In this document: positions 27,476-63,593 of the stretch, piece after piece
How positions within the stretch are numbered: position 1 is the first letter of the stretch
Layout: every line of letters begins with the position of its first letter
Sequence record: PZ386978.1
Reading direction: 5' to 3' (one strand)
Length of the DNA stretch: 64,000 nt
Source of the DNA: a phage
Made by a program: the position numbers and the translations under genes
The notes under the pieces: model-generated
Database searches by the model: none
Told to the model about the DNA's origin: nothing
Seen by the model: the letters and a program-made list of their open reading frames with translations, nothing else

Positions 27476-27746
27476 AGAGAAGTGGGAGATTTTACCATTA
27501 GTCAGTGAAGGCGGTAATGGTTGTGAAATGTACATGATACGTGGTCATGTTCCAGAACCAATTGCACTTGAGATGGTAAACAACTTTACAGATGGCTCTT
27601 ACAAAGACTTAGGGGAGCCAACTATAAAGCAGCAATGGGTAAAGCCTGTACCAGACAGCACAGGTAACTGTAGTGTACTTTATCACGTTGTAGACCCTGC
27701 AAGATGCAAATCTGCAATGGCAGTAACAAACGTAACTTTTGATTGA
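27468..27746 (+). CDS. hypothetical protein
   Basis: 92 aa ORF. Confidence 0.4.
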   Translation: MAKEKWEILPLVSEGGNGCEMYMIRGHVPEPIALEMVNNFTDGSYKDLGEPTIKQQWVKPVPDSTGNCSVLYHVVDPARCKSAMAVTNVTFD

Positions 27747-27757
27747 GAGAGAAAACT

Positions 27758-28639
27758 ATGAAAACATCTATCCGTGTTACAGTTCATTCACCAACTAAAG
27801 GGACTCATGAAGAAGAGTTTAACATCATCCAATTCCCTTCTGGTGAGATTGGTGGACACTTTTCACCAGAGTTTGTTGATTTCACTGCTTATGCAGCATC
27901 ATCCATCAACAATGTGGTTATGATTGTAAAAGGTTATGATAAGGACACATTGTTTGCTGTGGCACTTGCTAAAGAGGCGGTGGATGACTTAGTACCTCAT
28001 AAGTTTGCTATGAAGACTGTTATCTTTTACTATTTGCCAAATGCACGTTACGACCGTCACATGTTTAAAGGTGATGCAGCAGCTTTGAAAGTGTTTGCAC
28101 AACAGGTTAATGCAATGGGTTTTGATGCAGTCTGTGCAGTTGACCCTCACAGTTACGTTCCAGACAACCTGTTTAACTGCTTCCAGAGTATTCCTCAAAA
28201 GGAGATTGCAGTTCACTATGCAAATGACCCTCTGATTGATTACTTAGTAGCCCCAGATGCAGGTGCTTCTAAGAAGATTGCAGAGACTGCTAAAGAGGTG
28301 GATAAACCATATATCACAATGTCTAAAGTGCGTAACCTTAAGACTGGTGAAATTACTGGTATGCGAATCCTTGATGATGTTGATTTGACAGATAAAACCG
28401 TCATGATTCTGGATGATATCTGTGATGGTGGTCGAACCTTCGTAGAAGCAGCAAAACATCTTCGTGAAGCAGGTGCAAAACGTGTGGAACTTTATGTAAC
28501 ACATGGTATCTTCTCTAAAGATGTTGAAAACCTTCTTGACAACGGTATCGACCATATTTACACTACGAACTCTTTAGGCGAAGCTAAAGACCGTGGTTTA
28601 ACACATTATAGTCAAGTTACTGTAGCAAACCTTGATTGA
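27758..28639 (+). CDS. ribose-phosphate pyrophosphokinase (PRPP synthetase)-like protein
   Basis: Type I PRTase/PRPP-binding loop VMILDDICDGGRTF in C-terminal half; ATG at 27758 preferred over track start 27743. Confidence 0.7.
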   Translation: MKTSIRVTVHSPTKGTHEEEFNIIQFPSGEIGGHFSPEFVDFTAYAASSINNVVMIVKGYDKDTLFAVALAKEAVDDLVPHKFAMKTVIFYYLPNARYDRHMFKGDAAALKVFAQQVNAMGFDAVCAVDPHSYVPDNLFNCFQSIPQKEIAVHYANDPLIDYLVAPDAGASKKIAETAKEVDKPYITMSKVRNLKTGEITGMRILDDVDLTDKTVMILDDICDGGRTFVEAAKHLREAGAKRVELYVTHGIFSKDVENLLDNGIDHIYTTNSLGEAKDRGLTHYSQVTVANLD

Positions 28640-28648
28640 AAGTTTATA

Positions 28649-28669
28649 GGGGCTTAAAAGCCCCATTTT
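28649..28669 (+). terminator. hairpin, possible terminator/attenuator
   Basis: GGGGCTTAAAAGCCCC followed by ATTTT. Confidence 0.4.
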
Positions 28670-28684
28670 GAGAGAGATTAAAAG

Positions 28685-30466
28685 ATGACTAAATCACTTT
28701 ATGCAGTACCAGCAGGTTTAAATGCAGATGCTTACAAGGCATCACATATATATCAGTATCCAGATGCTACGCAATATCTTATGTTGAACCTAACACCACG
28801 TAGCGACAAATGGTTTAACAGCCCCTTAGCAATTGATGGTGTAGTGGCTTTTGGTATTCAACGTTTCGTTAAAGATTACTTGATAGACCATTGGAATGCC
28901 ACCTTCTTTGAACGTGACAAAAAAGAAGCAATTGACGAAATCTTAGAAGTCATGAATGGTGTTCTGGGTAAAGATGCTATCGGTCGAGAGCATTGGGAAG
29001 CACTTCACGACTTAGGTTATCTACCAGTTGAAGTATACGCTGTAGAAGAAGGTACAGTTGTCCCTATGCGTGTCCCAATGATTGTCTTCCAGAACACTGT
29101 TTCAGGTTTCCATTGGGTAGCAGGTTATCTGGAAGATGCTTTCTCTGCTGAGATTTGGAAGGCTTGTACCATTGCAACTATTGCATTGCATTATAAACGC
29201 ATCTGTAAGAAGTGGGCTGACCTTACTTGTGACAATGACTTACATTTACCTTATCAGTGCCATGACTTTGCTATGCGTGGTATGTCCGGCTTTACTGATG
29301 ACGCATTTAACGCTGTAGGTCACTTAACCAGCTTTAAAGGAACTGATAGCTTCCCTGCTGTATACACGGCTAAACGCATCTATGGACAGTCTTACCCAAT
29401 TTCTGATATTGGTAGTTCTGTACCAGCCACTGAACACTCTGTAATGTGTGCAAACATTGCTTGGGAAGGTGGTAATGAATTGATTGAAGAGGAAAGACGC
29501 TTTAAAGGTGAATTACAAACCTTCCGTCGCTTCTTAACAGAAACTTACCCAACTGGTATTGCAAGTATTGTTTCAGACACTTATAACTTCTGGAGAACTG
29601 TGTCAGAAATCTTACCAGCACTTCGCAAAGAGATTATGGAACGTGACGGTAAACTGGTAATTCGTCCTGACTCTGGAGACCCTGTACACATTGTCACAGG
29701 TTATAAAGCAATCCACTTAGAGTGTGCTAAAAAGGCTTATTATGAGCACCTAAGCAAGCTGGAAGCCAGTGACACAATGCTGAATGCTGTTCTGAACATG
29801 AAGCTTGAAAACATCAGCTATGGTATTGCTGGATGGCTACTGTCAGAAGGCTACGAAATGGTTGTTGACCGAGAAGACTTTGAAGTTGCTGATACAGTGA
29901 TGTTGAAAAATGCTTATATGGTTGGCTCTGCAAACGTTGTAACACGTCCTGTAGCAGAGATTGATGGAGCTATTAAGACACTGTACAACATCTTTGGAGG
30001 AACTATTAACTCGAAAGGGTTTAAGGTACTGGATGAGCACATCGGCCTTATCTATGGTGACTCTATCACACTGGAACGTGCAAACGAAATCCTGAAGCGT
30101 CTGTATGAAATGGGTTTTGCAAGCTCTAACGTAGTGTTTGGCGTAGGCTCTTACACTTACCAGTACATGACTCGTGACACCTTTGCATTTGCTGTTAAAG
30201 CAACTCTTGCAAGCATTGGTGGTAAAGAGATTATGCTTGCAAAAGACCCTAAAACAGATAGTGGTGTTAAGAAGTCTGCTTTTGGTGGTGTAGCACCTAT
30301 GTGGGATGGTGATAAGTTGAAAGCTGTAGATGGCTACGGATTCCAGAGCTTTGCAGATGCACTTGAACATCCAGCTTGTGCTTTACGTTTAGTCTTTAGT
30401 GACTCTGAGCAGTACGGTTACACATCTCTTGGTGATATTCGAAATAATATTGACAAGCAGCTTTAA
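28685..30466 (+). CDS. nicotinamide phosphoribosyltransferase (NAMPT)-like protein
   Basis: 593 aa; overall NAMPT-like by eye, immediately downstream of the PRPP-synthetase-like gene. Confidence 0.7.
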   Translation: MTKSLYAVPAGLNADAYKASHIYQYPDATQYLMLNLTPRSDKWFNSPLAIDGVVAFGIQRFVKDYLIDHWNATFFERDKKEAIDEILEVMNGVLGKDAIGREHWEALHDLGYLPVEVYAVEEGTVVPMRVPMIVFQNTVSGFHWVAGYLEDAFSAEIWKACTIATIALHYKRICKKWADLTCDNDLHLPYQCHDFAMRGMSGFTDDAFNAVGHLTSFKGTDSFPAVYTAKRIYGQSYPISDIGSSVPATEHSVMCANIAWEGGNELIEEERRFKGELQTFRRFLTETYPTGIASIVSDTYNFWRTVSEILPALRKEIMERDGKLVIRPDSGDPVHIVTGYKAIHLECAKKAYYEHLSKLEASDTMLNAVLNMKLENISYGIAGWLLSEGYEMVVDREDFEVADTVMLKNAYMVGSANVVTRPVAEIDGAIKTLYNIFGGTINSKGFKVLDEHIGLIYGDSITLERANEILKRLYEMGFASSNVVFGVGSYTYQYMTRDTFAFAVKATLASIGGKEIMLAKDPKTDSGVKKSAFGGVAPMWDGDKLKAVDGYGFQSFADALEHPACALRLVFSDSEQYGYTSLGDIRNNIDKQL

Positions 30467-34697: not shown

Positions 34698-35246
34698 ATG
34701 AAGAAATTGATTCTAGGTTTGTGCTTAATGTTTACAGCACACTTATCTTATGCAGTTGACTGCCCAGAGCTATCAATTAGCCAAAAAGTAAACATGTTAA
34801 AAGCTTACCAGTATGGTGAGAATAACATGGGTAAAGGTTGGGGTATCACTCTAGCTGCTATAGCCTTACAAGAGTCAGAGTTAGGTCTGAATGTAGAGAA
34901 TAAAAAGACACATGATTATGGTATCTTCCAGAATCACTTGAAGACTGTTGTAAAGCGTAACAAAATCAGTCCTAATGTGGCTAAAAAGAAACTCTTAAAA
35001 GATTTTGACTATGCTGCAAAGGAAACACACAAAGAGCTTGAATTTTGGACTAAGGTACACGGTCAACCAAAGTCAAAGAAGACTTTACAAAAAGTTTTAG
35101 CATCATATAATGCTGGGTATTCGTACAGAATCCCTAAAGCTAAGAAATATTCTCAAAATGTCTATAACAATATGAAAGTCATCGCTCAATGTGAATTTGC
35201 AACAAACATTTCTAAGGTAAATCATGAAAAAATTAAGAAAGTCTGA
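34698..35246 (+). CDS. putative secreted lytic transglycosylase-like protein
   Basis: Signal peptide MKKLILGLCLMFTAHLSYA; ALQESELG...YGIFQ resembles the SLT-domain catalytic region. Confidence 0.45.
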   Translation: MKKLILGLCLMFTAHLSYAVDCPELSISQKVNMLKAYQYGENNMGKGWGITLAAIALQESELGLNVENKKTHDYGIFQNHLKTVVKRNKISPNVAKKKLLKDFDYAAKETHKELEFWTKVHGQPKSKKTLQKVLASYNAGYSYRIPKAKKYSQNVYNNMKVIAQCEFATNISKVNHEKIKKV

Positions 35247-35919
35247 TGAAGTACTGTGTCATGCTTATGACTTGCATCCTCATGAGTTAGGGCTTGATTC
35301 CTGTATATGGACTCCAGAACAGTGCAGGGATTTTGAAGACACTGCAAGAGAGGTTGCATGTTCACTCGAAGAGTTCCACACATCAGAACCAATTGTGAAC
35401 GTTGTGGACAAAGAGACTGGACAATCTATAGGTGTAAGACGTGACAGTTTAGTCATAGTCAATAAAGACCTTGTAGAAAAAGGTAACCTCATCTTAGCAG
35501 ATATTGATGGTGTTCTTACAAATTTTAATCACGAAGATTGTTCAACGGAATTGACTGATGGTTCATTTTCACAGTACACTAATCTTCTTGACTCTGTAAG
35601 AGCAAAACCAACGTATGTTTTCAATATCATTGATGCAATTGCTAATCATGCTGCCGTTGGACTCTTGACAGCGAGAGGCGAATCTCAGAGAATACCCACT
35701 GAGATGTTTTTAAGGCATAACACAGAGCATGATTATATGCTTTTTATGCGTGGTTTTGGAACTAACTCTATAAGTGCAGAAAGTTTGAAAGTGAGGATGA
35801 TTCAGTCTTGCATTCTGCCTTACTTTAATATAGTATGTTTTATAGAAGATACAGAGAAGAATGTGCAGAAGGTGAACAGAATCCTTCCACACATCAAAAC
35901 CATGTTAGTTAAACATTGA
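35224..35919 (+). CDS. hypothetical protein
   Basis: 231 aa ORF. Confidence 0.45.
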   Translation: MKKLRKSDEVLCHAYDLHPHELGLDSCIWTPEQCRDFEDTAREVACSLEEFHTSEPIVNVVDKETGQSIGVRRDSLVIVNKDLVEKGNLILADIDGVLTNFNHEDCSTELTDGSFSQYTNLLDSVRAKPTYVFNIIDAIANHAAVGLLTARGESQRIPTEMFLRHNTEHDYMLFMRGFGTNSISAESLKVRMIQSCILPYFNIVCFIEDTEKNVQKVNRILPHIKTMLVKH

Positions 35920-36404: not shown

Positions 36405-36428
36405 CAGGCTCCTTCGGGAGCCTTTTTC
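36405..36428 (+). terminator. intrinsic terminator
   Basis: CAGGCTCCTTCGGGAGCCT followed by TTTTC. Confidence 0.6.
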
Positions 36429-36446: not shown

Positions 36447-36794
36447 ATGACATTTAAAGAGTTCTGTCAAGCTACTTTCATAATTGTTTTCTTAGTTGGG
36501 GCAGGTGTCTGGGGAGGATACTCTTACAGAGACTACCAAGTTGCTGAAACTGAGCTAAACAATCAAAAGCTCATAAGTGTTGCTAAAGATGCTTATCAGG
36601 AAGGATTAGTTACACTGAGCACCAATTACAAAAATGATTTGAAAGATGTGCTTGCTAAGAATAAGCACACAAAAGAGGTACTAACATATGAAAAAACTAA
36701 GCCAGAGTTTTATAATGTTTGTGTTACTGATAATTATGTCAGGGTGTTCAACGAACAAAGTGAACAGTACATTCAAAAACTCCCAAGTAAGTGA
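36447..36794 (+). CDS. membrane-anchored protein, possible i-spanin
   Basis: N-terminal transmembrane helix FIIVFLVGAGVWGG then soluble domain; an overlapping out-of-frame lipoprotein ORF begins inside its 3' end. Confidence 0.35.
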   Translation: MTFKEFCQATFIIVFLVGAGVWGGYSYRDYQVAETELNNQKLISVAKDAYQEGLVTLSTNYKNDLKDVLAKNKHTKEVLTYEKTKPEFYNVCVTDNYVRVFNEQSEQYIQKLPSK

Positions 36795-36957
36795 GAGTGA
36801 TAAGTACACTCAAGAAGAATCACGGTATATCGTCAAAGGCAACACAGGCAGTGATGTAGCAGCAGCACTTGAGTTCTACCGTGACGGCTTTTACCAGTGT
36901 ACAATTAAAGCTAATAACCTTATTGACATGATTTTATTAGGGAATAAGCAGCAATGA
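36688..36957 (+). CDS. lipoprotein, possible o-spanin
   Basis: Signal peptide with lipobox LLIIMSGC|S; starts within the preceding gene in another frame. Confidence 0.4.
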   Translation: MKKLSQSFIMFVLLIIMSGCSTNKVNSTFKNSQVSESDKYTQEESRYIVKGNTGSDVAAALEFYRDGFYQCTIKANNLIDMILLGNKQQ

Positions 36958-37552: not shown

Positions 37553-37754
37553 AAAGACACGAAAACTTATCAGGTCAGCAGTGTTCATTGGACGAAATGA
37601 GGTCATCCCATTTACAGCAAATGATGTGATAGTTTACAGGAAAAACTTAGTATTCACTGACTGCTTACGTGGCTTCATCTCTGAACCATTGGAAGACTTT
37701 AAAAGTCGTTGTGGTAAAGGTATCATCATTCAAGAGGCAATTATTCATGGCTGA
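37527..37754 (+). CDS. hypothetical protein
   Basis: 75 aa ORF. Confidence 0.35.
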   Translation: MKVILARDKKTRKLIRSAVFIGRNEVIPFTANDVIVYRKNLVFTDCLRGFISEPLEDFKSRCGKGIIIQEAIIHG

Positions 37755-37947
37755 CTTCTGCAAAGACTGTTCTATCGAGATGTTTGGACGTGATACAGGT
37801 GCCTTAAAAGGTCTCATCACTGAAGATGACTTTAAAGCTGGCTATGCAATGCCAGTAATCTGTGAAGGTTGTGGGTGCATCTGGGTAGACCACGAAGGGC
37901 AACGTGTAAAACCTTCAGAAGATAAAGAATCTTGGGAGAGATGTTAA
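37747..37947 (+). CDS. hypothetical small Cys-rich protein
   Basis: Start at MADFCKDC; CxxC...CEGCGC pattern suggests a zinc ribbon. Confidence 0.4.
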   Translation: MADFCKDCSIEMFGRDTGALKGLITEDDFKAGYAMPVICEGCGCIWVDHEGQRVKPSEDKESWERC

Positions 37948-38733
37948 ATGGGCATTGTAAAAATCATCAATGGTGATATCTTTGCAGCATTTGATAAAGG
38001 TAAGTTTGACGTCATTGGTCACGGTTGCAACTGTATGAATTTAATGGGTGCAGGTATCGCTGACAAGATTTCTAAACTTTACCCAAAAGCATATGAGACC
38101 GATACAGAAGTTTATCTATATGCAGGTGGTATAGGCCACAAACCCTGTGAAAATTTACTGGGTAATTTCTCTGTAGCACGTTTAAAACAAGGTCGCATAG
38201 CTAACCTTTACACTCAACTTAAGACTGGTAAAGATGCCAGATACAGTGCTTTAGAGTCATCTTTGAAACAGCTTAACAGATACTGTGAAGTCAACCAGTT
38301 GAAGAAGGTTGGTCTACCTATGATTGGTGCAGGTATCGGTGGGCTAGACCCTCAAGCCGTCACAGTTATCATTAATCAGGTGATGAAGAGTGTAGATGTG
38401 TATCTTTATGTCTACGAAGGAGAGATGTACCACAAGTTACGCTCAGGTTGGAAGAACTACTGTGAACCAGAATACTTTGCAGGTGTAGTAGTGTTCACTA
38501 ATGATGCAGTTACCCTCTTCAGACGAAGAAAAGGTAAGATACATCAAAGTAACCCTCCGGTTGAAAAGATGTCTCTAAGTAACGCTCTAGTTACCCACCT
38601 GTCGAAGAGCAGTCACAGGATTGCAGTAACATTTGGCAGTGATGCAGATGCTTACATCTATGCAAGAACTGATGAGGATATCGAGACGGTTTTCTCTTCA
38701 CCAGAGCTTACCTTCTTAGACGCAAAGAACTAA
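37948..38733 (+). CDS. macro-domain-like protein (ADP-ribose binding/processing)
   Basis: N-terminal NGDIFAAFDKGKFDVIGHGCNCMNLMGAGIADKI follows the macro-domain pattern GDI...D.IVNAAN...GGGV..AI. Confidence 0.5.
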   Translation: MGIVKIINGDIFAAFDKGKFDVIGHGCNCMNLMGAGIADKISKLYPKAYETDTEVYLYAGGIGHKPCENLLGNFSVARLKQGRIANLYTQLKTGKDARYSALESSLKQLNRYCEVNQLKKVGLPMIGAGIGGLDPQAVTVIINQVMKSVDVYLYVYEGEMYHKLRSGWKNYCEPEYFAGVVVFTNDAVTLFRRRKGKIHQSNPPVEKMSLSNALVTHLSKSSHRIAVTFGSDADAYIYARTDEDIETVFSSPELTFLDAKN

Positions 38734-38805
38734 GAAACTTCGTAGTATATTCACAATAGACTAAGCCTTTCTTATCTGGTAAATTTCTCAGGTAAGGAGG
38801 GCTTT

Positions 38806-38992
38806 TTCATTTCAGAATTGTGCAGGTAGAGTTCTGTAGAGAAATCTATAGAGAAAATTTTGAACTCCAAAGAGAAAATTCATTTTCAAACTGTGCAGGT
38901 AATCTCCAAAGAGCTTTTTCATTTTCAAAACGTGCAGACCCCGCTCAGGTCGGGCAAGAAAAATCATTTTAGAATTGTGCAGGTAGGTGGGT
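38806..38992 (+). repeat. four direct repeats, consensus TTTTCATTTTCARAAYTGTGCAGGTA (iteron-like)
   Basis: Copies near 38814, 38879, 38926 and 38963, spaced ~45-65 bp, in the 500 bp non-coding gap upstream of the small-gene array. Confidence 0.6.
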
Positions 38993-57983: not shown

Positions 57984-58057
57984 CTCTGTTTAGCTCAGCT
58001 TGGTAGAGCGTTCCGTTTGGGGCGGTAAGGCCGGAGGTTCAAGTCCTCCAACAGAGA
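57984..58057 (+). tRNA. tRNA-Pro (anticodon UGG)
   Basis: Acceptor CTCTGTT/AACAGAG, D-arm GCTC..GAGC, anticodon loop TTTGGGG, T-arm GGAGGTTCAAGTCCTCC, CCA encoded. Confidence 0.7.
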
Positions 58058-58067
58058 CCAAATTAAT

Positions 58068-58142
58068 GTTCCAGTAGACAAAATGGTATAGTCACCACTC
58101 TTTCAAAGTGGATATTTGAGGGTTCAAATCCCTTCTGGAACG
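58068..58142 (+). tRNA. tRNA-Glu (anticodon UUC)
   Basis: Acceptor GTTCCAG/CTGGAAC, anticodon stem CCACT/AGTGG with loop CTTTCAA, T-loop TTCAAAT, CCA encoded. Confidence 0.7.
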
Positions 58143-58152
58143 CCAGTTTTGA

Positions 58153-58226
58153 CAGAAGACCAATTACAGCAAACTTAATCTTATTCATCTGAAGGTAAAT
58201 CGGACAAAGAAGAGATTTGGTCTGGT
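58153..58226 (+). ncRNA. conserved stem-closed element, copy 1
   Basis: CAGAAGACCAATTACAGCAA...ATTTGGTCTGG; stem AGACCAA/TTGGTCT. Confidence 0.4.
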
Positions 58227-58237
58227 CATTAAGAATT

Positions 58238-58310
58238 GCGGGTATAGAGAAAGGGCGTCTCACATGTCTCATTAGCATGGTATCGGCAGGTTCGACTCCT
58301 GCACCCGCCT
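58238..58310 (+). tRNA. tRNA-Met family (anticodon CAU; initiator, elongator or Ile-lysidine undetermined)
   Basis: D-stem GAGA/TCTC, anticodon stem CATGT/GCATG with loop CTCATTA, T-arm GCAGGTTCGACTCCTGC; acceptor boundary ambiguous by 1 nt. Confidence 0.6.
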
Positions 58311-58317
58311 CCAAATT

Positions 58318-58384
58318 TACAGAAGACCGTTTACAGCAATATTTATTAAATTTTTAGCGGAAAAATTGAAAGATACGGTCTGGT
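58318..58384 (+). ncRNA. conserved stem-closed element, copy 2
   Basis: CAGAAGACCGTTTACAGCAA...ATACGGTCTGG; stem AGACCGT/ACGGTCT (compensatory to copy 1). Confidence 0.4.
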
Positions 58385-58396
58385 AATACTAAACAT

Positions 58397-58470
58397 GGTT
58401 AGGAAGCACATAAGGTATGTGCGGTCGCCTGTTAAGCGAATGGCACAGGGTTCGAATCCCTGACTAACCG
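58397..58470 (+). tRNA. tRNA-Asn (anticodon GUU)
   Basis: Acceptor GGTTAGG/ACTAACC, D-stem GCAC/GTGC, anticodon loop CTGTTAA, T-arm CAGGGTTCGAATCCCTG, CCA encoded. Confidence 0.7.
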
Positions 58471-58542
58471 CCAAATTTAGGAGAGAAGCGATTGCTCACC
58501 GATTTGTAAGGTGCAAGTCCTTAGCCTGAATAGAAATTAAAT

Positions 58543-58627
58543 GTGTCGTTATCCCGTAGATGGTAGCGGTGGGGACTGTAAATCCCTTGTCATTGAGACT
58601 CGGTAGGTTCGACTCCTACACGGCACA
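58543..58627 (+). tRNA. tRNA-Tyr (anticodon GUA), long variable arm
   Basis: 85 nt; acceptor GTGTCGT/ACGGCAC, anticodon loop CTGTAAA, long variable arm, T-arm GTAGGTTCGACTCCTAC, CCA encoded. Confidence 0.65.
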
Positions 58628-58635
58628 CCAATAAA

Positions 58636-58710
58636 GGTTATGTAGTTTAATTTGGTTAAAATACTCCCCTGTCACGGGAGATGATGAGGGTTCAAATCCA
58701 TTCGTAACCG
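58636..58710 (+). tRNA. tRNA-Asp (anticodon GUC)
   Basis: Acceptor GGTTATG/CGTAACC, anticodon stem CTCCC/GGGAG with loop CTGTCAC, T-loop TTCAAAT, CCA encoded. Confidence 0.65.
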
Positions 58711-58773
58711 CCAATTTTGAGAGGGCTATTTAGCCCCTCCCTTAAAGAGTTCTTACGAGTATTCTTTAAAGGA

Positions 58774-58849
58774 GCAGAAGACCAAATACAGCAAGTTACT
58801 TAAAATTTCAAGCCAATTTAATTTTGAAAAATTTAAAACTTGGTCTGGC
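58774..58849 (+). ncRNA. conserved stem-closed element, copy 3
   Basis: CAGAAGACCAAATACAGCAA...CTTGGTCTGG; stem AGACCAA/TTGGTCT. Confidence 0.4.
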
Positions 58850-58860
58850 TCAACAAATTT

Positions 58861-58993
58861 ACAGAAGACCGTTTACAGCAAAACTTAAACAATCTATTTC
58901 TCGGTAAAGAAAAGGCGAAGGTTCGATTCCTTCACTCGGCAGATGTCGAGTTGGTGTAATGGTAGCACTTAAGATGATAAACAACGGTCTGGT
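58861..58993 (+). ncRNA. conserved stem-closed element, copy 4, with an embedded permuted tRNA-like segment
   Basis: CAGAAGACCGTTTACAGCAA...AACGGTCTGG; interior has T-arm GAAGGTTCGATTCCTTC + ACTCGGC directly followed by GTCGAGT + D-arm-like GGTGTAATGGTAGCAC. Confidence 0.4.
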
Positions 58994-59136
58994 AATTATC
59001 TTTGTAGATAAGTTATTAAGCTTACCTGTGAGTATGCGACCACAAAGGGTGAAGGGTAAATTCTAGATTTAAACCCAAAAAGGCACATCGCTACAGACCT
59101 TAAGCAAGTCTGGGTAGCTTATCTACAAAGATAATT
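58994..59136 (+). repeat. 19 bp perfect inverted repeat enclosing ~105 nt
   Basis: AATTATCTTTGTAGATAAG at 58994-59012 and its exact reverse complement CTTATCTACAAAGATAATT at 59118-59136. Confidence 0.6.
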
Positions 59137-59140
59137 TAAT

Positions 59141-59213
59141 GGAAGTGTAGCAGAATGGTGATGCGGCAGACTTTTAATCTGACAGGCGATGGGTTCGAAT
59201 CCCTCCACTTCTA
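59141..59213 (+). tRNA. tRNA-Lys (anticodon UUU)
   Basis: Acceptor GGAAGTG/CACTTCT, anticodon loop CTTTTAA, T-loop TTCGAAT, CCA encoded; paralogue of tRNA at 60730. Confidence 0.6.
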
Positions 59214-59220
59214 CCAATAT

Positions 59221-59294
59221 GGTTCAGTCGCAGATAAGGTAATGCAAGGGTCTCATAAGCCCTATGAATGTGGGTTCGATTCCCATCTGAACCT
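59221..59294 (+). tRNA. tRNA-Met family, second copy (anticodon CAU)
   Basis: Acceptor GGTTCAG/CTGAACC, anticodon stem AGGGT/GCCCT with loop CTCATAA, T-loop TTCGATT, CCA encoded. Confidence 0.65.
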
Positions 59295-59298
59295 CCAA

Positions 59299-59371
59299 GC
59301 TGGTATAGTTAAGAAGGTTATAACACTCCCCTGATAAGGGAACATCGGTGGTTCGATTCCACCTACCAGTA
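59299..59371 (+). tRNA. tRNA-Ile (anticodon GAU)
   Basis: Acceptor GCTGGTA/TACCAGT, D-stem GTTA/TAAC, anticodon loop CTGATAA, T-arm GGTGGTTCGATTCCACC, CCA encoded. Confidence 0.7.
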
Positions 59372-59389
59372 CCAATTTCAATAAAGTTG

Positions 59390-59418
59390 TTGACATTGAG
59401 ATGTGACTACTTTATAGT
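59390..59418 (+). promoter_or_regulatory. sigma70-like promoter inside tRNA cluster
   Basis: TTGACA 59390-59395, 17 nt spacer, TATAGT 59413-59418. Confidence 0.55.
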
Positions 59419-59622
59419 AACCTTAGTTTTCGTTGCGTAGCGTCTATTTTGCAAATTTAAAATAAATGCAAACGACAATGTTTTTCTGGCAGTAGCTTGA
59501 TAGGCTAAACACCAGTGAGGTCTTCCAATCCCTCATCAAAGAATTTGGCGTACTAGCCCACGGTATGATTAATAAGGTGGGCATCTTTAAGGGCTTTCTA
59601 AGAGAGTCTTTAAAGATAATTA

Positions 59623-59701
59623 CGGGGCGTATCTCAGCTGTCTTCTAAACAGCCGTTAATCGAGTAAGTGGAGTATGCGGGTTCGAGTCCTGCCGCCTCG
59701 A
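59623..59701 (+). ncRNA. atypical tRNA-like gene (acceptor + T-arm + anticodon-like hairpin with loop CTTCTAA; no recognisable D-arm)
   Basis: Acceptor CGGGGCG/CGCCTCG, T-arm GCGGGTTCGAGTCCTGC, hairpin GCTGT-CTTCTAA-ACAGC (would read UCU, Arg), 22 nt extra segment, CCA encoded. Confidence 0.4.
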
Positions 59702-59718
59702 CCAATTTTGGAGAAATC

Positions 59719-60066
59719 ATGAAAACTTGTATTAGGTGCAAACTCAGCAAGGATGAAAATGATTTCTACATGAAAGATGGTAGGAGAACTCATTCATACT
59801 GTAAAAAGTGTGTTAATGAGCAAACCATAGAAAGACAAAGAGCACTTAAACTCTCAGCTATTGAGTACAAAGGTGGGGTTTGTCACGATTGTGGTAAAAA
59901 GTATCATCCAGCAGTGTATGACTTCCATCATTTGAATCCTTCAGATAAAGATTTTAACATTGGTCATAGGAAAAGCCTTAAGTTCTCTCAAGAACTAAAA
60001 GATGAACTTGACAAATGTGTTTTGCTATGTTCAAATTGCCATAGGGTAAGACATGCAAAGTATTAG
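59719..60066 (+). CDS. HNH endonuclease within tRNA cluster
   Basis: Start at MKTCIRCK with GGAG SD (track start 59668 overlaps the upstream tRNA-like gene); zinc-finger cysteines and HNH core DFHHLNP...CSNCHRVRH. Confidence 0.7.
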   Translation: MKTCIRCKLSKDENDFYMKDGRRTHSYCKKCVNEQTIERQRALKLSAIEYKGGVCHDCGKKYHPAVYDFHHLNPSDKDFNIGHRKSLKFSQELKDELDKCVLLCSNCHRVRHAKY

Positions 60067-60203
60067 TTAGCAGATTACTTAGACGACCTTAGCGGGTCTC
60101 CGTGTAGGGAGGTGGTCTGTATCTCATGTTTTCCAGAACATGTAAATAATCTGAGAAGGGGCTTTACAGTGTTGAGATAATACGGTAAGCTTCGAATTAT
60201 AGT

Positions 60204-60283
60204 GTGGGACGATGTTAAGACTCTAAGGCATGAGCAACGGCCTCCAAAACCGTTTCAAAGGGGTTCAACTCCTCCGTCCCATG
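60204..60283 (+). tRNA. tRNA-Trp (anticodon CCA), 5' boundary uncertain
   Basis: Anticodon loop CTCCAAA, T-loop TTCAACT, acceptor GTGGGAC/GTCCCAT, CCA encoded; D-region longer than canonical. Confidence 0.5.
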
Positions 60284-60299
60284 CCAAAGTCTTATTAGG

Positions 60300-60387
60300 G
60301 GTAGGTAGCGGCTAATGGCAGCCAAACAGTCTTGAAAACTGTTGCCACTGTAGAGATACGGTGAGGGTTCGACTCCTTTACTTACCG
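60300..60387 (+). tRNA. tRNA-Ser (anticodon UGA), long variable arm
   Basis: 88 nt; acceptor GGTAGGT/ACTTACC, anticodon stem ACAGT/ACTGT with loop CTTGAAA, long variable arm, T-loop TTCGACT. Confidence 0.65.
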
Positions 60388-60644
60388 CCTAATAAGATTT
60401 AAAGCCAAGCTTCATTCGGATGTTGCTTTGGTATCACTCGTGTATTGTCGTACACACTGATAAAACACTTAGTAGGTGTCACGGAGAAGAGATAATATCA
60501 AGCTCTCCAAAGGTTCTAGTCACCGGATTAAACAAGACTATGCAAAGACCTTTTTAGGTCTTTTTAGAGGGCTTCTAAGGTTATTACAGCTTGTTGTGGA
60601 ACCTTGTTGCTTAGGTTCTTAGAAGTTCTCTAAAAAGATTTAAT

Positions 60645-60719
60645 GGGAGATTGATGGTAATTGGTAAACCTATCTCGCTTAGAACGAGATGTTTGAGGGT
60701 TCGAATCCCTTGTCTCCTA
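60645..60719 (+). tRNA. tRNA with anticodon UAG (Leu by anticodon) but short variable arm
   Basis: Anticodon stem TCTCG/CGAGA with loop CTTAGAA, T-arm GAGGGTTCGAATCCCTT, acceptor GGGAGAT/GTCTCCT, CCA encoded; 5 nt variable loop. Confidence 0.5.
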
Positions 60720-60729
60720 CCAAATTAAT

Positions 60730-60802
60730 GCAGGTGTAGCAAAATGGTTATGCGGCTGACTCTTAATCAGTAAGACGATGGGTTCAATTCCCTCCACCTG
60801 TA
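60730..60802 (+). tRNA. tRNA-Lys (anticodon CUU)
   Basis: Acceptor GCAGGTG/CACCTGT, anticodon loop CTCTTAA, T-loop TTCAATT, CCA encoded. Confidence 0.6.
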
Positions 60803-60811
60803 CCAGACATT

Positions 60812-60884
60812 GGGGTCATAGTTTATATGGTTAAAATTCGAGTTTTGCAAACTTGGGAACTGAGTTCAATTCTCAGTGACTCCA
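60812..60884 (+). tRNA. tRNA-Ala (anticodon UGC)
   Basis: Acceptor GGGGTCA/TGACTCC, anticodon loop TTTGCAA, T-arm CTGAGTTCAATTCTCAG, CCA encoded. Confidence 0.65.
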
Positions 60885-60893
60885 CCAATTAGT

Positions 60894-60965
60894 GCATCCA
60901 TAGTTTAAACGGGAAAATTACAGTCTTCCAAACTGAGGTTGAGGGTTCGATTCCCTCTGGATGCT
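60894..60965 (+). tRNA. tRNA-Gly (anticodon UCC)
   Basis: Acceptor GCATCCA/TGGATGC, anticodon loop CTTCCAA, T-arm GAGGGTTCGATTCCCTC, CCA encoded. Confidence 0.7.
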
Positions 60966-60975
60966 CCAAATTAAT

Positions 60976-61048
60976 GCTCCTATCGTATAATCGGCTATTA
61001 CGGTTGCCTTGTAAGCAACTTATCAGGGTTCGAATCCTTGTGGGAGCA
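60976..61048 (+). tRNA. tRNA-Thr (anticodon UGU)
   Basis: Acceptor GCTCCTA/TGGGAGC, anticodon stem GTTGC/GCAAC with loop CTTGTAA, T-loop TTCGAAT, CCA encoded. Confidence 0.7.
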
Positions 61049-61054
61049 CCAATT

Positions 61055-61143
61055 CAGAGGTCAAGTGAAAGACCGCTGGTGTCAACTGAAGACCGTAACA
61101 AATTCCACGGAGTTGAGTTAGCGGCACAACTTCAGACCTCTTT
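61055..61143 (+). ncRNA. large hairpin element between tRNAs
   Basis: Outer stem CAGAGGTC / GACCTCTT enclosing ~75 nt that contains CTGAAGACCGTAACAA (related to the CAGAAGACC elements) and inner stem TGAAG/CTTCA. Confidence 0.35.
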
Positions 61144-61146
61144 CAT

Positions 61147-61218
61147 ACTCGCTTAGTTTATATGGTAAAACATCACCCTTACAAGATGAAGAAAAAGGTT
61201 CAAGTCCTTTAGTGAGTA
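61147..61218 (+). tRNA. tRNA-Val (anticodon UAC)
   Basis: Acceptor ACTCGCT/AGTGAGT, D-stem GTTT/AAAC, anticodon loop CTTACAA, T-arm AAAGGTTCAAGTCCTTT, CCA encoded. Confidence 0.65.
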
Positions 61219-61222
61219 CCAT

Positions 61223-61297
61223 GTTCCAGTATCCCAATTGGCAGAGGATGCAAGCTCAAACCTTGTATTAGTGACGGTTCGAATCCGTCTTGGAACA
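61223..61297 (+). tRNA. tRNA with anticodon CAA (Leu by anticodon) but short variable arm
   Basis: Acceptor GTTCCAG/TTGGAAC, anticodon stem GCAAG/CTTGT with loop CTCAAAC, T-arm GACGGTTCGAATCCGTC, 75 nt, CCA encoded. Confidence 0.5.
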
Positions 61298-61305
61298 CCA
61301 ATTTT

Positions 61306-61378
61306 GCAGGATTAGTTCAAATGGATAGAGCAACAGTCTACGAAACTGTTAATAGGGGTTCGAATCCCTTATCCTGCG
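61306..61378 (+). tRNA. tRNA-Arg (anticodon ACG)
   Basis: Acceptor GCAGGAT/ATCCTGC, anticodon stem ACAGT/ACTGT with loop CTACGAA, T-loop TTCGAAT, CCA encoded. Confidence 0.7.
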
Positions 61379-61399
61379 CCAGATAAGCAAGAGGAATTT

Positions 61400-61642
61400 A
61401 TGCAAACATTAACCGTCGTTGAACATGAAAATTCCAATAGTATTGAGTTTGTAAGGGTTCCCACTATAGATACCCACATTTTCTTAAAAGTCGGATGGGA
61501 ATGCGACCCAATAAAAGTAGAAAGATTTATTGGTCATTGCTTTGGTGGAAGACAACTTAAAAGTGTCAATTTTGAGACAATGTTGCCAGAAAGCTCAGAA
61601 ACAAATAATAATGCTTACCTCCTTACGAGGGTTAGACAATGA
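61400..61642 (+). CDS. hypothetical protein within tRNA cluster
   Basis: 80 aa ORF between tRNA genes; coding status uncertain. Confidence 0.3.
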   Translation: MQTLTVVEHENSNSIEFVRVPTIDTHIFLKVGWECDPIKVERFIGHCFGGRQLKSVNFETMLPESSETNNNAYLLTRVRQ

Positions 61643-62196
61643 GATACTTAAAATATGCTTCATGGATTTTCTTAGCTTTACTAGACCCAATTGCAGCAAT
61701 CCTAGCAGTTATCTTAGCACCTTTCGTAGTTCCATTCTACAGTGAGAAGAAAGGGCATCTACCTTTTGGATTCAGATGGATGGAGACCTATGACAACCCA
61801 ATTGATGGTGACGAAGGTCACGTTAAAAGATGGGCTAAGATTAGAAAGATTGGTAAGCTAGGTGTCTACATGCAGAGAGTCGGATGGCTATGGAGAAACA
61901 AAGCTTATAACTTCTCTTACCATGTATTAGGAAGAGATGTAAAAGATGTCACTAAGTGGAAAGGTAATATCAACGTAAGTTCTGACCCTGAAGATAATCA
62001 GACAGGTTATCTCCTAATGTGGAACAACAATGCTTGGGGATTATTTGCTTTTATTCCGTCAATTAAAGTCTTTGGTAAACAGTTTTACTGGAGAATTTAT
62101 GTTGGATGGAAACTAAAAAGTGTTGTCCCAGAAGAAAGAGCATTCTCAAGGGAAAGAGTTATGTTGGCATTCTTTATTCATCCACTGAGAAAGTAA
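61639..62196 (+). CDS. hypothetical membrane protein within tRNA cluster
   Basis: 185 aa; N-terminal hydrophobic helices IFLALLDPIAAILAVILAPFVVPF; Trp-rich. Confidence 0.45.
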   Translation: MRYLKYASWIFLALLDPIAAILAVILAPFVVPFYSEKKGHLPFGFRWMETYDNPIDGDEGHVKRWAKIRKIGKLGVYMQRVGWLWRNKAYNFSYHVLGRDVKDVTKWKGNINVSSDPEDNQTGYLLMWNNNAWGLFAFIPSIKVFGKQFYWRIYVGWKLKSVVPEERAFSRERVMLAFFIHPLRK

Positions 62197-62204
62197 AGAT
62201 TTAA

Positions 62205-62277
62205 AGGGGATTAGTTTACAAGGTTAAAACCTCGGTCTTTGAAATCGAAGAAGTTGGTTCAATTCCAACATCCCCCG
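62205..62277 (+). tRNA. tRNA-Gln (anticodon UUG)
   Basis: D-stem GTTT/AAAC, anticodon loop CTTTGAA, T-arm GTTGGTTCAATTCCAAC, acceptor 3' ATCCCCC, CCA encoded. Confidence 0.65.
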
Positions 62278-62282
62278 CCAAT

Positions 62283-62358
62283 GCTCCATTACTCCAATTG
62301 GCAGAGAGGCCAGACTTAAAATCTGTGTTATGTATCGGTTCGAATCCGATATGGAGTA
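62283..62358 (+). tRNA. tRNA with anticodon UAA (Leu by anticodon) but short variable arm
   Basis: Acceptor GCTCCAT/ATGGAGT, anticodon loop CTTAAAA, T-arm ATCGGTTCGAATCCGAT, 76 nt, CCA encoded. Confidence 0.5.
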
Positions 62359-62366
62359 CCAAATTT

Positions 62367-62439
62367 AGCGGTATAGCATAACTGGCAATGCAACAGTCTC
62401 TGAAGCTGTCCTATTAAGGTTCAAATCCTTATGCCGCTG
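62367..62439 (+). tRNA. tRNA-Gln (anticodon CUG)
   Basis: Acceptor AGCGGTA/TGCCGCT, D-stem GCAT/ATGC, anticodon loop CTCTGAA, T-arm TAAGGTTCAAATCCTTA, CCA encoded. Confidence 0.65.
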
Positions 62440-62473
62440 CCACTTCTAAGGGTTCTTACGAGAGTCCTTAAAT

Positions 62474-62546
62474 GTGGCCTTATCATAAATGGTAATGACC
62501 CATGCTGTGAACATGGTCTATACGGGTTCAAATCCCGTAGGTCACC
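62474..62546 (+). tRNA. tRNA-His (anticodon GUG)
   Basis: Acceptor GTGGCCT/AGGTCAC, D-stem TCAT/ATGA, anticodon stem CCATG/CATGG with loop CTGTGAA, discriminator C, CCA encoded. Confidence 0.7.
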
Positions 62547-62554
62547 CCAATTTA

Positions 62555-62629
62555 TAGTCCAAGTAGCTTATATGGTTAAAGCGCGTGTCTGAAAAACATG
62601 AGAAGAGGGTTCAAATCCCACTGGACTAC
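62555..62629 (+). tRNA. tRNA-Phe (anticodon GAA)
   Basis: Acceptor TAGTCCA/TGGACTA, anticodon loop CTGAAAA, T-loop TTCAAAT. Confidence 0.65.
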
Positions 62630-62647
62630 CAATTTCAAAGGTGCTTA

Positions 62648-63382: not shown

Positions 63383-63383
63383 T

Positions 63384-63473
63384 GGAAGATTAACCCTAAA
63401 AGGTAAGGGAGCAGTTTGCTAAACTGCCAGTAGCTGAGAAATCGGTGTACCAGTTCAAGTCTGGTATCTTCCT
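63384..63473 (+). tRNA. tRNA-Ser (anticodon GCU), long variable arm
   Basis: 90 nt; acceptor GGAAGAT/ATCTTCC, anticodon stem GCAGT/ACTGC with loop TTGCTAA, long variable arm, T-arm ACCAGTTCAAGTCTGGT, CCA encoded. Confidence 0.7.
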
Positions 63474-63480
63474 CCAATTT

Positions 63481-63553
63481 GAATCCGTGACAGAAATGGC
63501 TATGTGCCTGTCTGCAAAACAGGTTTATAAGGGTTCGAGTCCCTTCGGATTCT
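63481..63553 (+). tRNA. tRNA-Cys (anticodon GCA)
   Basis: Acceptor GAATCCG/CGGATTC, anticodon stem CCTGT/ACAGG with loop CTGCAAA, T-arm AAGGGTTCGAGTCCCTT, CCA encoded. Confidence 0.7.
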
Positions 63554-63593
63554 CCAAGTTATTTTACTCTCTCTCAATTAAAATAATAATAAT

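Follow-up and report, generated by a model that had tools for sequence, protein, structure and literature searches.

Introduction

Phage macrodomain proteins have been tied to two bacterial defense systems. In T4, the Tk.4 protein, termed AdfM (anti-DarT factor, macrodomain), counters DarTG2, and deletion of tk.4 sensitizes the phage to this system; the evidence is genetic, of preprint level and from T4 alone, with the underlying biochemistry presumed (preprint 10.1101/2025.11.20.689424). The AdfM of phage PhiKZ has been shown biochemically to remove DarT2-added ADP-ribose from DNA (PMC13309987). The second activity is that of Adpp of Vibrio phage Gary (KNV71_gp137), an ADP-ribose-1''-phosphate (ADPR-1''-P) phosphatase that feeds NARP1 against aRES and in which H24 and N27 are essential, as seen with H24A/N27A (preprint 10.64898/2026.01.28.702374). 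NARP1, consisting of Adps and Namat, was discovered and first experimentally characterized in Bas63, and aRES is present in E. coli, Klebsiella, and Enterobacter. About 15% of NARP1 phages encode a macrodomain phosphatase for ADPR-1''-P inside the NARP1 operon itself, an arrangement (NARP1-AP) that is recognized when the Adpp gene lies no more than two genes away from Adps or Namat (preprint 10.64898/2026.01.28.702374).

A bacterial chromosomal protein is also relevant. SCO6735 of Streptomyces coelicolor (PDB 5E3B), a thymidine-ADP-ribose DNA hydrolase, cleaves dT-ADPr DNA and protects against DarT, its Q85A variant being inactive and N27S almost completely so, and it also de-ADP-ribosylates protein in vitro (PMC9411070). 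Mutational data on the H-x-x-N residues are available for both SCO6735 (PMC9411070) and PhiKZ AdfM (PMC13309987). The gene analyzed here is a macrodomain gene of the FelixO1-like phages, which are widely used in typing and biocontrol of Salmonella and E. coli. Our literature search retrieved nothing that connects DarTG with Bas63 or, in functional terms, with Felixounavirus, and nothing on Felix-like phages against aRES.

Gene Annotation and Genomic Setting

The window (the whole stretch of 64,000 nt of phage DNA that was analyzed, record PZ386978.1) belongs to a Felixounavirus, i.e., a FelixO1-like phage, and is 95% identical to Bas63. A complete ORF does occupy exactly positions 37948..38733, as initially annotated, and the peptide NGDIFAAFDKGKFDVIGHGCNCMNLMGAGIADKI, in which a macro-domain pattern had been recognized, corresponds to residues 8-41 of its product, hereafter the Felix-type protein (Table 1). 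The FelixO1 ortholog (Felix01p025, NP_944801.1) is annotated as "phosphatase" and that of Bas63 (gene 0095) as "putative phosphatase"; a macro domain protein or phosphatase label for this gene predates the present analysis. The gene is kept in approximately 260 Ounavirinae records, and its product matches PHROG 335 with an E value of 1.8e-112.

Table 1. Features of the macrodomain gene and its surroundings (positions in the window).
Feature	Position	Strand	Remarks
NARP1 operon (context)	27743..30466	+	Adps 27743..28639, Namat 28685..30466
Complete ORF, ATG to stop	37948..38733	+	261 aa plus stop; ortholog of FelixO1 ORF13 and Bas63 bas63_0095
Macrodomain, residues 1-157	37948..38418	+	PF01661, profile matches, AlphaFold2, Foldseek, dN/dS
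H25-G-C-N28-C motif	38020..38034	+	H25, G26, N28, and C29 invariant in 30 homologs
Glycine-rich loop 1 of the predicted ADP-ribose pocket, M33-G-A-G-I-A38	38044..38061	+	
N86-L-Y-T-Q90 motif	38203..38217	+	invariant in 30 homologs
Phosphate-binding loop 2, P124-M-I-G-A-G-I-G-G132	38317..38343	+	
C-terminal domain, residues 158-261	38419..38730	+	one helix, six-to-seven-strand beta domain, short helix
Terminator-like hairpin	38763..38804	+	17-bp stem, then T run; 30 nt past the stop codon

The surroundings agree with the initial annotation, which had placed NAD genes upstream and an array of small genes behind: Adps, which is Prs-like (Pfam Pribosyltran/Pribosyl_synth), and Namat, which is NAMPT-like (NAPRTase/NAMPT_N), correspond to bas63_0079/0080 and lie 7.5-10 kb upstream, and short ORFs follow downstream. 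Counting downstream from Namat, the macrodomain gene comes 15th; the 14 genes (7.5 kb) in between include rIIA/rIIB, and this interval contains at least two hairpins resembling terminators (34611 and 36406). The gene thus lies outside the NARP1 operon and beyond the two-gene distance that defines NARP1-AP. It is part of a seven-ORF unit that starts past the hairpin at 36406..36423 and is closed by the hairpin behind the gene.

The same order, with Namat approximately 9 kb upstream, was observed in every two-domain relative with a readable neighborhood, and a Kolesnikvirus also has Namat. The macrodomain gene is co-inherited with NARP1 because the whole early block is conserved. As to the functional link with the NAD genes that had been proposed for this locus, there is published precedent in NARP1 and in the operon-encoded Adpp, but what the genomes themselves display is this co-inheritance of a syntenic block. 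A HAD_PNKP-like gene is located 2 kb upstream of the macrodomain gene, an arrangement that recurs in distant relatives. The 66-aa Cys-rich ORF upstream was considered as a conserved partner and rejected: a CxxC...CxxC ORF is equally placed in one distant relative with an unrelated sequence, and two other distant relatives have none.

The N-Terminal Macrodomain

Our analysis confirmed that the gene encodes an N-terminal macrodomain. The Pfam Macro family (PF01661) matches residues 25-141 over profile positions 2-117 of 118, with 32.3 bits (E 1e-7) against a curated gathering cutoff of 22 bits. A profile built from 30 homologs matches human TARG1 (5e-17), DarG of M. tuberculosis (1e-14), SCO6735 (5e-14), DarG of T. 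aquaticus (2e-13), and yeast Poa1p (2e-12). The AlphaFold2 model of the 261-aa protein has a mean pLDDT of 92.1 and a pTM of 0.89, with pLDDT values of 87-98 across residues 1-157, and these residues form the three-layer alpha/beta/alpha macro fold. In Foldseek the model matched Poa1p, TARG1, and DarG with a probability of 1.00 and target-normalized TM scores of 0.77-0.87. Strong purifying selection acts on the macrodomain (dN/dS 0.02-0.15). The initial macro-domain call, for which an HMM search and a structure prediction had been proposed as checks, is well borne out by both. The macrodomain is confined to residues 1 to ~157, and the C-terminal domain had been overlooked in that annotation.

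Alignments identify N28 as the conserved macrodomain Asn, equivalent to N23 of PhiKZ AdfM and to N27 of both SCO6735 and Gary Adpp, and H25 as the equivalent of H24 in the latter two. In loop 1, which is also conserved in TARG1, DarG, and PhiKZ AdfM, M33, G36, and A38 are invariant among the 30 homologs and G34 and I37 are at least 90% conserved, while in loop 2 P124, G127, G129, and I130 are invariant. N28 and both glycine-rich loops, i.e., pocket elements that align with those of TARG1, DarG, and PhiKZ AdfM, are present and invariant or nearly so. The catalytic lysine is absent: in both profile and MAFFT alignments Q90, invariant in the 30 homologs, falls in the column of the catalytic TARG1 K84 and DarG K80, which is Q85 in SCO6735. 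Since the catalytic D125 of TARG1 aligns with G131, the Lys/Asp dyad of that enzyme is missing as a whole, and the protein does not carry the Lys-type signature of TARG1 and DarG. It belongs to the Gln-type phage macrodomain family (PHROG 335).

Comparison With Characterized Macrodomain Proteins

The best-scoring characterized relative is T4-type Tk.4, compared as the sequence from the T4-like phage RB32 (35% identity over ~155 aa, 83.6 bits, E 7e-25). Both proteins belong to PHROG 335 and have in common HGCNC, MG[AS]G[IV]A, NLYTQ with a short loop behind it, and IGAGIG. The two proteins are products of early-region phage genes, and a vs.1-like SLT gene lies nearby in both genomes. However, Tk.4 is a single domain of 155 aa, whereas the Felix-type protein has 261 aa with an extra C-terminal domain of 104 aa; the tree does not make the two proteins sisters, and T4 lacks NARP1. 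PhiKZ AdfM (gp104) is a distant, Lys-type, DarG-like protein that scored 25.8 bits against the query.

Gary Adpp shares with the Felix-type protein PHROG 335, the Gln-type active site, the essential H24/N27 (kept as H25/N28), and a NARP1 encoded in the same genome. The two nevertheless have only 27% identity (52.8 bits), and Adpp differs in its HQCNC, in its YGQ-Y-x-[YW] motif with inserted residues and in its GCGLAGG loop, in being a single-domain protein, and in being encoded inside the Adps-Namat operon, 14 genes away from which the Felix-type gene is found. The NARP1-associated Adpp of JG004, with 76.3 bits, comes close to Tk.4 in its similarity to the query, and Tk.4 itself scored 84.7 bits against an Adpp.

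SCO6735 resembles the Felix-type protein in having a Gln at the position of TARG1 K84 and DarG K80, as well as the H-x-x-N motif and the loop-2 glycines, with Q85, N27, and G126/G128 corresponding to Q90, N28, and G127/G129. It differs in its bacterial chromosomal origin, in its longer loop after the Gln and in having no C-terminal domain. Its DNA-positioning K34 is replaced by Ala35; K92 and K95 of the Felix-type protein lie near the position of the other DNA-positioning lysine, K89, but in other alignment columns, the loop lengths being different.

With DarG2 of T. aquaticus (5M31/5M3E) and M. tuberculosis (5M3I) and with PhiKZ AdfM, the protein shares the macro fold (TM ~0.8), the Asn, and the Gly loops, while these proteins carry a catalytic Lys (FPTK) in place of the Gln. 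The overall layout of DarG2, a macrodomain plus a C-terminal domain, is also similar. Yet the C-terminal domain of DarG2 is an acidic mimic of ssDNA, whereas charge is not conserved in that of the Felix-type protein, and no DarT adjoins the gene, its neighbors being phage genes. DarG was the only significant match in the PADLOC and NCBIfam libraries; the NCBIfam model NF048014 scored 47.5 bits against a cutoff of 250, with positions 12-153 of 338 matched. The protein thus has neither the full-length, above-cutoff match to NF048014 nor the adjacent darT by which DarG2 antitoxins are defined. Finally, the Felix-type protein shares its macrodomain class (ALC1-like/Poa1p-like) with human TARG1/OARD1 (4J5R) and yeast Poa1p (6LFQ), but TARG1 has the K84/D125 dyad where the Felix-type protein has Q90/G131, and Poa1p has a Ser at the position of Q90.

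Proposed Function and Alternative Explanations

The catalytic activity, substrate, and biological role that we infer for the Felix-type protein are those of a two-domain anti-defense enzyme with AdfM-like DNA de-ADP-ribosylation, a reading that we favor over an Adpp-like role in trans and to which we assign a probability of about 50%. The N-terminal macrodomain would bind ADP-ribose and hydrolyze the C1'' linkage of the distal ribose through a lysine-independent, Gln-dependent active site as in SCO6735, made up of Q90, which N28 may position, and the two glycine-rich loops. Its most likely physiological substrate would be ADP-ribose that toxins of the DarT2 type link to thymidine in single-stranded DNA of the phage. 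The protein, presumably expressed from an early-region transcription unit with a terminator at either end, could work in the manner of T4 Tk.4/AdfM, as an orphan antitoxin that would erase the modification and release free ADP-ribose, upon which replication could continue. An anti-defense factor, which had been suggested initially, is now the best-supported reading, as both characterized Gln-type phage members are anti-defense proteins (Tk.4/AdfM against DarTG2, Gary Adpp against aRES). For host takeover and for the degradation of ADPR-derived signals, also suggested at that stage, no specific support was obtained. The AdfM-like reading draws on the fold and the invariant pocket motifs, on Q90 at the place of SCO6735 Q85, on Tk.4 as the top-scoring relative among those characterized, on DarG as the sole significant PADLOC and NCBIfam match, on the purifying selection and wide conservation of the gene in Ounavirinae, and on the biochemistry of PhiKZ AdfM. 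Speaking against it are the remoteness of that Lys-type protein, the nearly equal similarity of the query to NARP1-associated Adpp, the poorly supported deeper nodes of the tree, Ala35 in place of the DNA-positioning K34 of SCO6735, and the missing C-terminal domain in T4 AdfM.

Between the roles of AdfM and Adpp, however, sequence, motifs, tree, and synteny could not decide. In the bootstrapped neighbor-joining tree the two-domain clade forms its own branch with 74% support, and deeper nodes have at most 24%. The loop after the Gln was evaluated as a discriminator of phosphatases from glycohydrolases: all 10 sampled operon-encoded Adpp carry an insertion of 3-8 residues, beginning with Y-x-[Y/W] in nine of them, and the Felix-type protein and Tk.4 have none. 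It was dropped because the short loop is ancestral, TARG1 and DarG also lacking the insertion, because the DNA hydrolase SCO6735 (which a Pakpunavirus Adpp matches best in the PDB) has a long loop, so that the insertion is not specific to phosphatases, and because Poa1p has a Ser at the catalytic position. Database labels are likewise common to both kinds of protein and were rejected for this use (PHROG, PADLOC, NCBIfam): PHROG 335 contains the query along with T4 AdfM, PhiKZ AdfM, Gary Adpp, and JG004 Adpp, and the DarG model of PADLOC gave about equal matches for the three proteins on which it was run, the query, Tk.4, and Gary Adpp.

The main competitor, possible though in our view rather doubtful, is that the macrodomain is an ADPR-1''-P phosphatase and the phage has a NARP1-AP whose phosphatase is encoded outside the operon; ADPR-1P made by aRES (RES-domain NAD+ phosphorylases) would be converted to ADPR and then to NAD+ via the phage NARP1. 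Such a role is compatible with the AdfM-like one, as one macrodomain could do both. It is suggested by the shared PHROG 335 and Gln-type family of Gary Adpp with its essential His and Asn, by the presence of NARP1 in the window, by Namat in the two-domain relatives and the Kolesnikvirus, and by the bacterial occurrence of aRES given above. The top Foldseek match, Poa1p, is moreover the reference ADPR-1P phosphatase, and it is because of similarity to Poa1p that the long-standing "phosphatase" annotation arose. Against it stand the genes, rIIA/rIIB included, and terminator-like hairpins that separate the macrodomain gene from the NARP1 operon, the low similarity to the validated Gary Adpp and the missing post-Gln insertion, although the latter is not phosphatase-specific. 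Furthermore, most phages with a Tk.4-like macrodomain, such as T4-like phages, have no Namat (994 Escherichia records with the macrodomain vs. 192 with Namat), and it is not obvious why a phosphatase acting on a small molecule should need an extra domain.

Another target altogether, i.e., protein or RNA mono-ADP-ribosylated by host defense ADP-ribosyltransferases, O-acetyl-ADP-ribose to be deacetylated, or ADPR-based immune signals to be hydrolyzed, appears improbable. In line with such a target, TARG1/OARD1 is the protein in the PDB that matches best by sequence, and SCO6735 acts on modified protein in vitro. Macrodomains are also generally promiscuous for C1''-linked ADP-ribose conjugates. 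But the catalytic dyad of TARG1 is absent, both characterized Gln-type phage members point to DNA-ADPr or ADPR-1P, and no phage ADP-ribosyltransferase was noticed in the examined part of the window. Least probable, and very unlikely indeed, is a protein that binds or sequesters ADP-ribose without any catalysis, or else a housekeeping Appr-1''-p phosphatase working in RNA repair with the nearby HAD_PNKP-like gene. Some macrodomains do only bind their ligand, and that gene keeps its place in distant relatives; still, every residue known to be a catalytic need in SCO6735 and Adpp is invariant (H25, N28, Q90, and the loop-2 glycines), and a stoichiometric role is hard to reconcile with so strongly constrained an enzyme-like pocket. 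RNA repair of the T4 type, by PNK and ligase, is not known to produce Appr-1''-p.

A more speculative combination, which we consider unlikely, is a dual-purpose orphan antitoxin whose macrodomain would both erase DarT2 marks and dephosphorylate aRES-derived ADPR-1''-P, the resulting ADPR becoming NAD+ via NARP1 ("NARP1-AP in trans"), and whose C-terminal domain would engage the toxin or the substrate as a new kind of module, a functional analog, though no homolog, of the domain by which DarG2 binds DarT. If the AdfM-like reading is true, the gene explains part of the DarTG2 resistance of FelixO1-like phages. If the phosphatase acts in trans, the estimate that about 15% of NARP1 phages handle aRES would be too low, because only operon-adjacent macrodomain genes were counted. 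Current annotation lumps one sequence family with two characterized activities as "phosphatase"; since we could not separate these activities by motifs, tree, or synteny, substrate specificity becomes a directly testable question.

The C-Terminal Domain

Residues 158-261 form a separate, confidently folded and fast-evolving domain. Searches of Pfam and PHROGs with it returned nothing save its own full-length PHROG, and the DarG models of NCBIfam and PADLOC match the macrodomain part only. In an exhaustive profile search, 11 matches were obtained, those from outside the family being repeat proteins; no homolog or structural neighbor was detected outside its own lineage and no similarity to any solved structure. 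A fused T4 neighbor was also considered as the origin of the domain, and HMM comparisons with T4-type Tk.3, Tk.2, Tk.1, Vs, Vs.1, and two unnamed ORFs were negative. Homologs of the domain vary between pI 4.75 and 9.46 and carry net charges anywhere from -5 to +4 with no conserved charge pattern, and this variation does not support a DarG-like, DarT-binding ssDNA mimic or a basic DNA-binding module. The domain is a real, selected module, which might, as a guess, help the protein to contact its substrate or some host protein, and as an orphan it offers a handle on how a phage macrodomain is targeted.

Identity and distribution of the macrodomain

In silico analysis confirmed the macro domain that the initial annotation had proposed from residues 8-41 of the 261-aa product. 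Pfam Macro (PF01661) covers residues 25-141 with 32.3 bits (curated cutoff, 22), and a profile of 30 homologues matched the solved structures of TARG1/OARD1 (E 5e-17), M. tuberculosis DarG (1e-14), SCO6735 (5e-14), T. aquaticus DarG (2e-13) and yeast Poa1p (2e-12). The AlphaFold2 model built on the 30-homologue alignment is confident (mean pLDDT 92.1, pTM 0.89); its superpositions on Poa1p, TARG1 and DarG give TM-scores, normalised to the target, of 0.77-0.87. Thus, HMM search and structure prediction both returned the macro fold, with no unrelated family as best match.

The proposal is correct, yet largely annotated before. Over this region, nucleotide identity with FelixO1-like phages (Felixounavirus, Ounavirinae) amounts to 93-97%. 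The counterpart in FelixO1 is ORF13 (Felix01p025, 'phosphatase'), whose original note already cites likeness to the T4 '17.5 kDa protein in tk-vs intergenic region', i.e., Tk.4; that in Bas63 is bas63_0095 ('putative phosphatase'), and further records use 'macro domain-containing protein'. Given these annotations, the domain identity is not new. New here are an orphan C-terminal domain and the observation that two anti-defence activities, not yet separable by sequence, occur side by side in the 'phosphatase' family. In tblastn searches a related macrodomain was found in 2,796 phage records, only 262 of them with at least 80% query coverage; the N-terminal ~155 aa are widespread among phages, while the C-terminal ~100 aa are limited to Felix-like phages.

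Coordinates of the macro gene, its neighbourhood and related loci
Feature	Coordinates	Strand	Remarks
Adps (Prs-like)	27743..28639	+	NARP1 operon; orthologue of bas63_0079
Namat (NAMPT-like)	28685..30466	+	NARP1 operon; orthologue of bas63_0080
Terminator-like hairpins	34611, 36406		between Namat and macro gene
SLT-domain protein	34698-35246	+	T4 vs.1-like
'Polynucleotide kinase'	35224-35919	+	231 aa; 23-nt overlap with SLT gene
i-spanin/o-spanin	36447-36957	+	overlapping ORFs, names from relatives; head of macro gene's terminator-bounded unit
Cys-rich ORF	37747-37947	+	66 aa; CxxC ... CxxC; TAA stop adjoins macro-gene ATG
Macro gene	ATG 37948, stop codon 38731-38733	+	261 aa
C-terminal domain	38419-38730	+	residues 158-261; predicted helix, six to seven strands, short helix
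Terminator-like hairpin	38763-38804		17-bp; ends seven-ORF unit whose last gene is the macro gene
TTCATTTYNRAANYGTGCAGG array	38806-38983	+	four copies of 21 nt, spacing 73, 39, 45 nt
tRNA array	57984-63556	+	25 genes; typical for FelixO1-like phages
TTCATTTYNRAANYGTGCAGG array, relatives' loci	L001 8061-8119; L005 13305-13436; L007 1159-1290; L009 11453-11644
Macro orthologue, Erwinia phage Tian	L004 3998-4780
Cys-rich ORF of a relative	L010 9810-10001		CxxC...CxxC

Active site

Invariant in the 30 homologues are H25-G-C-N28-C, M33-G-A-G-I-A38, N86-L-Y-T-Q90 and P124-x-I-G-A-G-I130. To read the active-site columns, the protein was aligned with TARG1, the two DarG structures and PhiKZ gp104. 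N28 is the conserved macrodomain Asn and both Gly-rich loops are present, but the catalytic lysine (TARG1 K84, DarG K80) is replaced by Q90 and TARG1 D125 by G131; hence, this is not a Lys-type TARG1/DarG enzyme. Streptomyces SCO6735 is defined by the same Lys-to-Gln substitution and shares the H-x-x-N ... G-Q layout. Hydrolytic removal of ADP-ribose from thymidine in DNA was abolished by Q85A and nearly abolished by N27S in SCO6735, and this enzyme is protective against DarT (PMC9411070). We predict, with a probability of about 0.85, that the macro gene encodes a catalytically competent Gln-type macrodomain hydrolase acting at C1'' of ADP-ribose, a phage anti-defence enzyme. In the orthologue of Tian (Kolesnikvirus) Gln replaces H25 (AQGCNC for HGCNC); this His is indispensable to Gary Adpp and important for the structure of SCO6735.

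AdfM-like or Adpp-like function

Two activities are known among phage relatives, on recent evidence, part of it from preprints. T4 tk.4, which encodes the anti-DarT factor AdfM, was the single hit of a transposon screen on DarTG2, and its clean knockout makes T4 sensitive to DarTG2 (10.1101/2025.11.20.689424). PhiKZ gp104, also named AdfM, clears an oligonucleotide of the DarT2 modification in vitro (PMC13309987); it has the DarG-type FPTK lysine and reaches only 25.8 bits against the query. Adpp, a Poa1p-like macrodomain encoded within ~15% of NARP1 operons, dephosphorylates the ADPR-1''-P made by the aRES defence, a RES-domain NAD+ phosphorylase, and thereby allows NARP1 to restore NAD+; it loses function upon H24A or N27A mutation (10.64898/2026.01.28.702374). 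A literature search found no publication in which DarTG or aRES had been tested against a Felix-like phage.

The query macrodomain scored 83.6 bits against T4-type Tk.4 (the sequence of T4-like phage RB32), followed by Adpp of JG004 (76.3), phiPsa374 (67.8), phiAbaA1 (67.4) and Gary (52.8), TARG1 (47) and T. aquaticus DarG (43). It shares 35% identity (E 7e-25) and the motifs HGCNC, NLYTQ and IGAGIG with Tk.4; Gary Adpp (AHQCNC, NVYGQY, LIGCGLAGG) is also Gln-type. Tk.4 and phiAbaA1 Adpp match each other at 84.7 bits, so Tk.4, the Adpp proteins and the query belong to one family. The query falls into PHROG 335 together with each of the four characterised phage proteins. The PADLOC DarG model was run on three proteins (query, Tk.4, Gary Adpp) and matched them about equally. 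In a MAFFT alignment the loop after the Gln is short in the Felix protein, all two-domain relatives and Tk.4-like proteins, while all ten sampled operon-encoded Adpp carry an insertion of 3-8 residues, starting Y-x-[Y/W] in nine. We do not regard this loop as diagnostic, since the short form is ancestral (TARG1 and DarG have it too), Poa1p has Ser in the catalytic column and the loop is long in SCO6735, a DNA hydrolase and the best PDB match of a Pakpunavirus Adpp (E 1e-10). In an NJ tree (147 columns, 200 bootstrap replicates), the phage family of Gln type stood apart from TARG1 and DarG (72% support) and the two-domain clade was recovered (74%); nodes linking this clade, Tk.4-like and Adpp proteins reached at most 24%.

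AdfM-like reversal of DarT2 DNA ADP-ribosylation ranks first, at roughly even odds, because Tk.4 is the closest characterised relative, the active site is of SCO6735 type and the extra domain would have no obvious use in a small-molecule phosphatase. Ranked second and rather unlikely, though it may coexist with the AdfM-like role, is an Adpp-like ADPR-1''-P phosphatase feeding NARP1 in trans. The link to upstream NAD genes made in the initial annotation gains a concrete mechanistic precedent, as these genes are orthologues of the bas63_0079/0080 operon in which NARP1 (Adps and Namat; ADPR and nicotinamide to NAD+) was experimentally discovered; between Namat and the macro gene, however, lie 14 genes (rIIA and rIIB among them) and terminator-like hairpins. 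Synteny does not separate the two functions either. Among two-domain relatives, the two that diverge most (35-44% identity) keep the order Namat - rIIA - rIIB - ... - SLT-like - HAD-PNKP - ... - macro plus C-terminal domain, and Namat is also present in a Kolesnikvirus, so that NARP1 and the macro gene are always co-inherited in this lineage, but as parts of a conserved block. Outside it, most carriers of Tk.4-like macrodomains lack Namat; among Escherichia phage records, macro occurs in 994 versus 192 for Namat. Standard annotation still names the NARP1 genes ribose-phosphate pyrophosphokinase and nicotinamide phosphoribosyltransferase.

C-terminal domain

This domain is carried by 19 proteins of 246-264 aa and is modelled with pLDDT 83-94 in the full-length protein and 80 when folded alone. 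Searches of Pfam and PHROG matched only its own full-length PHROG, and its profile had 11 matches among 1.84 billion cluster representatives, the credible ones all being macro fusions or fragments of these. It is unrelated to tk.3 or other T4 neighbours. Its charge is not conserved (pI 4.75 to 9.46), and purifying selection is much weaker than on the macrodomain (dN/dS 0.14-0.54 versus 0.02-0.15), with ~1.2-7 times more non-synonymous change. The Tian orthologue has a C-terminal extension of similar length (~100 aa) that the Felix C-terminal-domain HMM does not recognise. The combination of macro and C-terminal domains resembles that of DarG2, in which the C-terminal domain is the DarT-binding part; the tests run gave homology or a shared property no support.

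Neighbouring genes and repeat array

Distant relatives likewise have the SLT and 'polynucleotide kinase' pair upstream of their macro gene. The latter protein may be a 3'-phosphatase without kinase domain, as a Pfam search gave no match and its relatives show only weak HAD_PNKP (phosphatase-domain) matches. The Cys-rich ORF was rejected as a conserved partner: the L010 ORF has the same position and motif but is unrelated by BLASTP, and other relatives carry a different gene there. The spanin ORFs lie in an otherwise early-gene region adjoining rIIA and rIIB.

Directly after the macro-gene terminator, the motif TTCATTTYNRAANYGTGCAGG forms an array that is possibly a promoter or regulator-binding array. 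Within the 64-kb window the motif is unique to the array (0.14 matches expected by chance); an Rfam search of the array matched no family. The array occupies the same place in FelixO1, Bas63 and EcF-vB, and a relative whose macro protein is only ~36-38% identical has three copies in the non-coding gap that follows its macro gene. In Bas63, the two small minus-strand ORFs annotated over the array look spurious.
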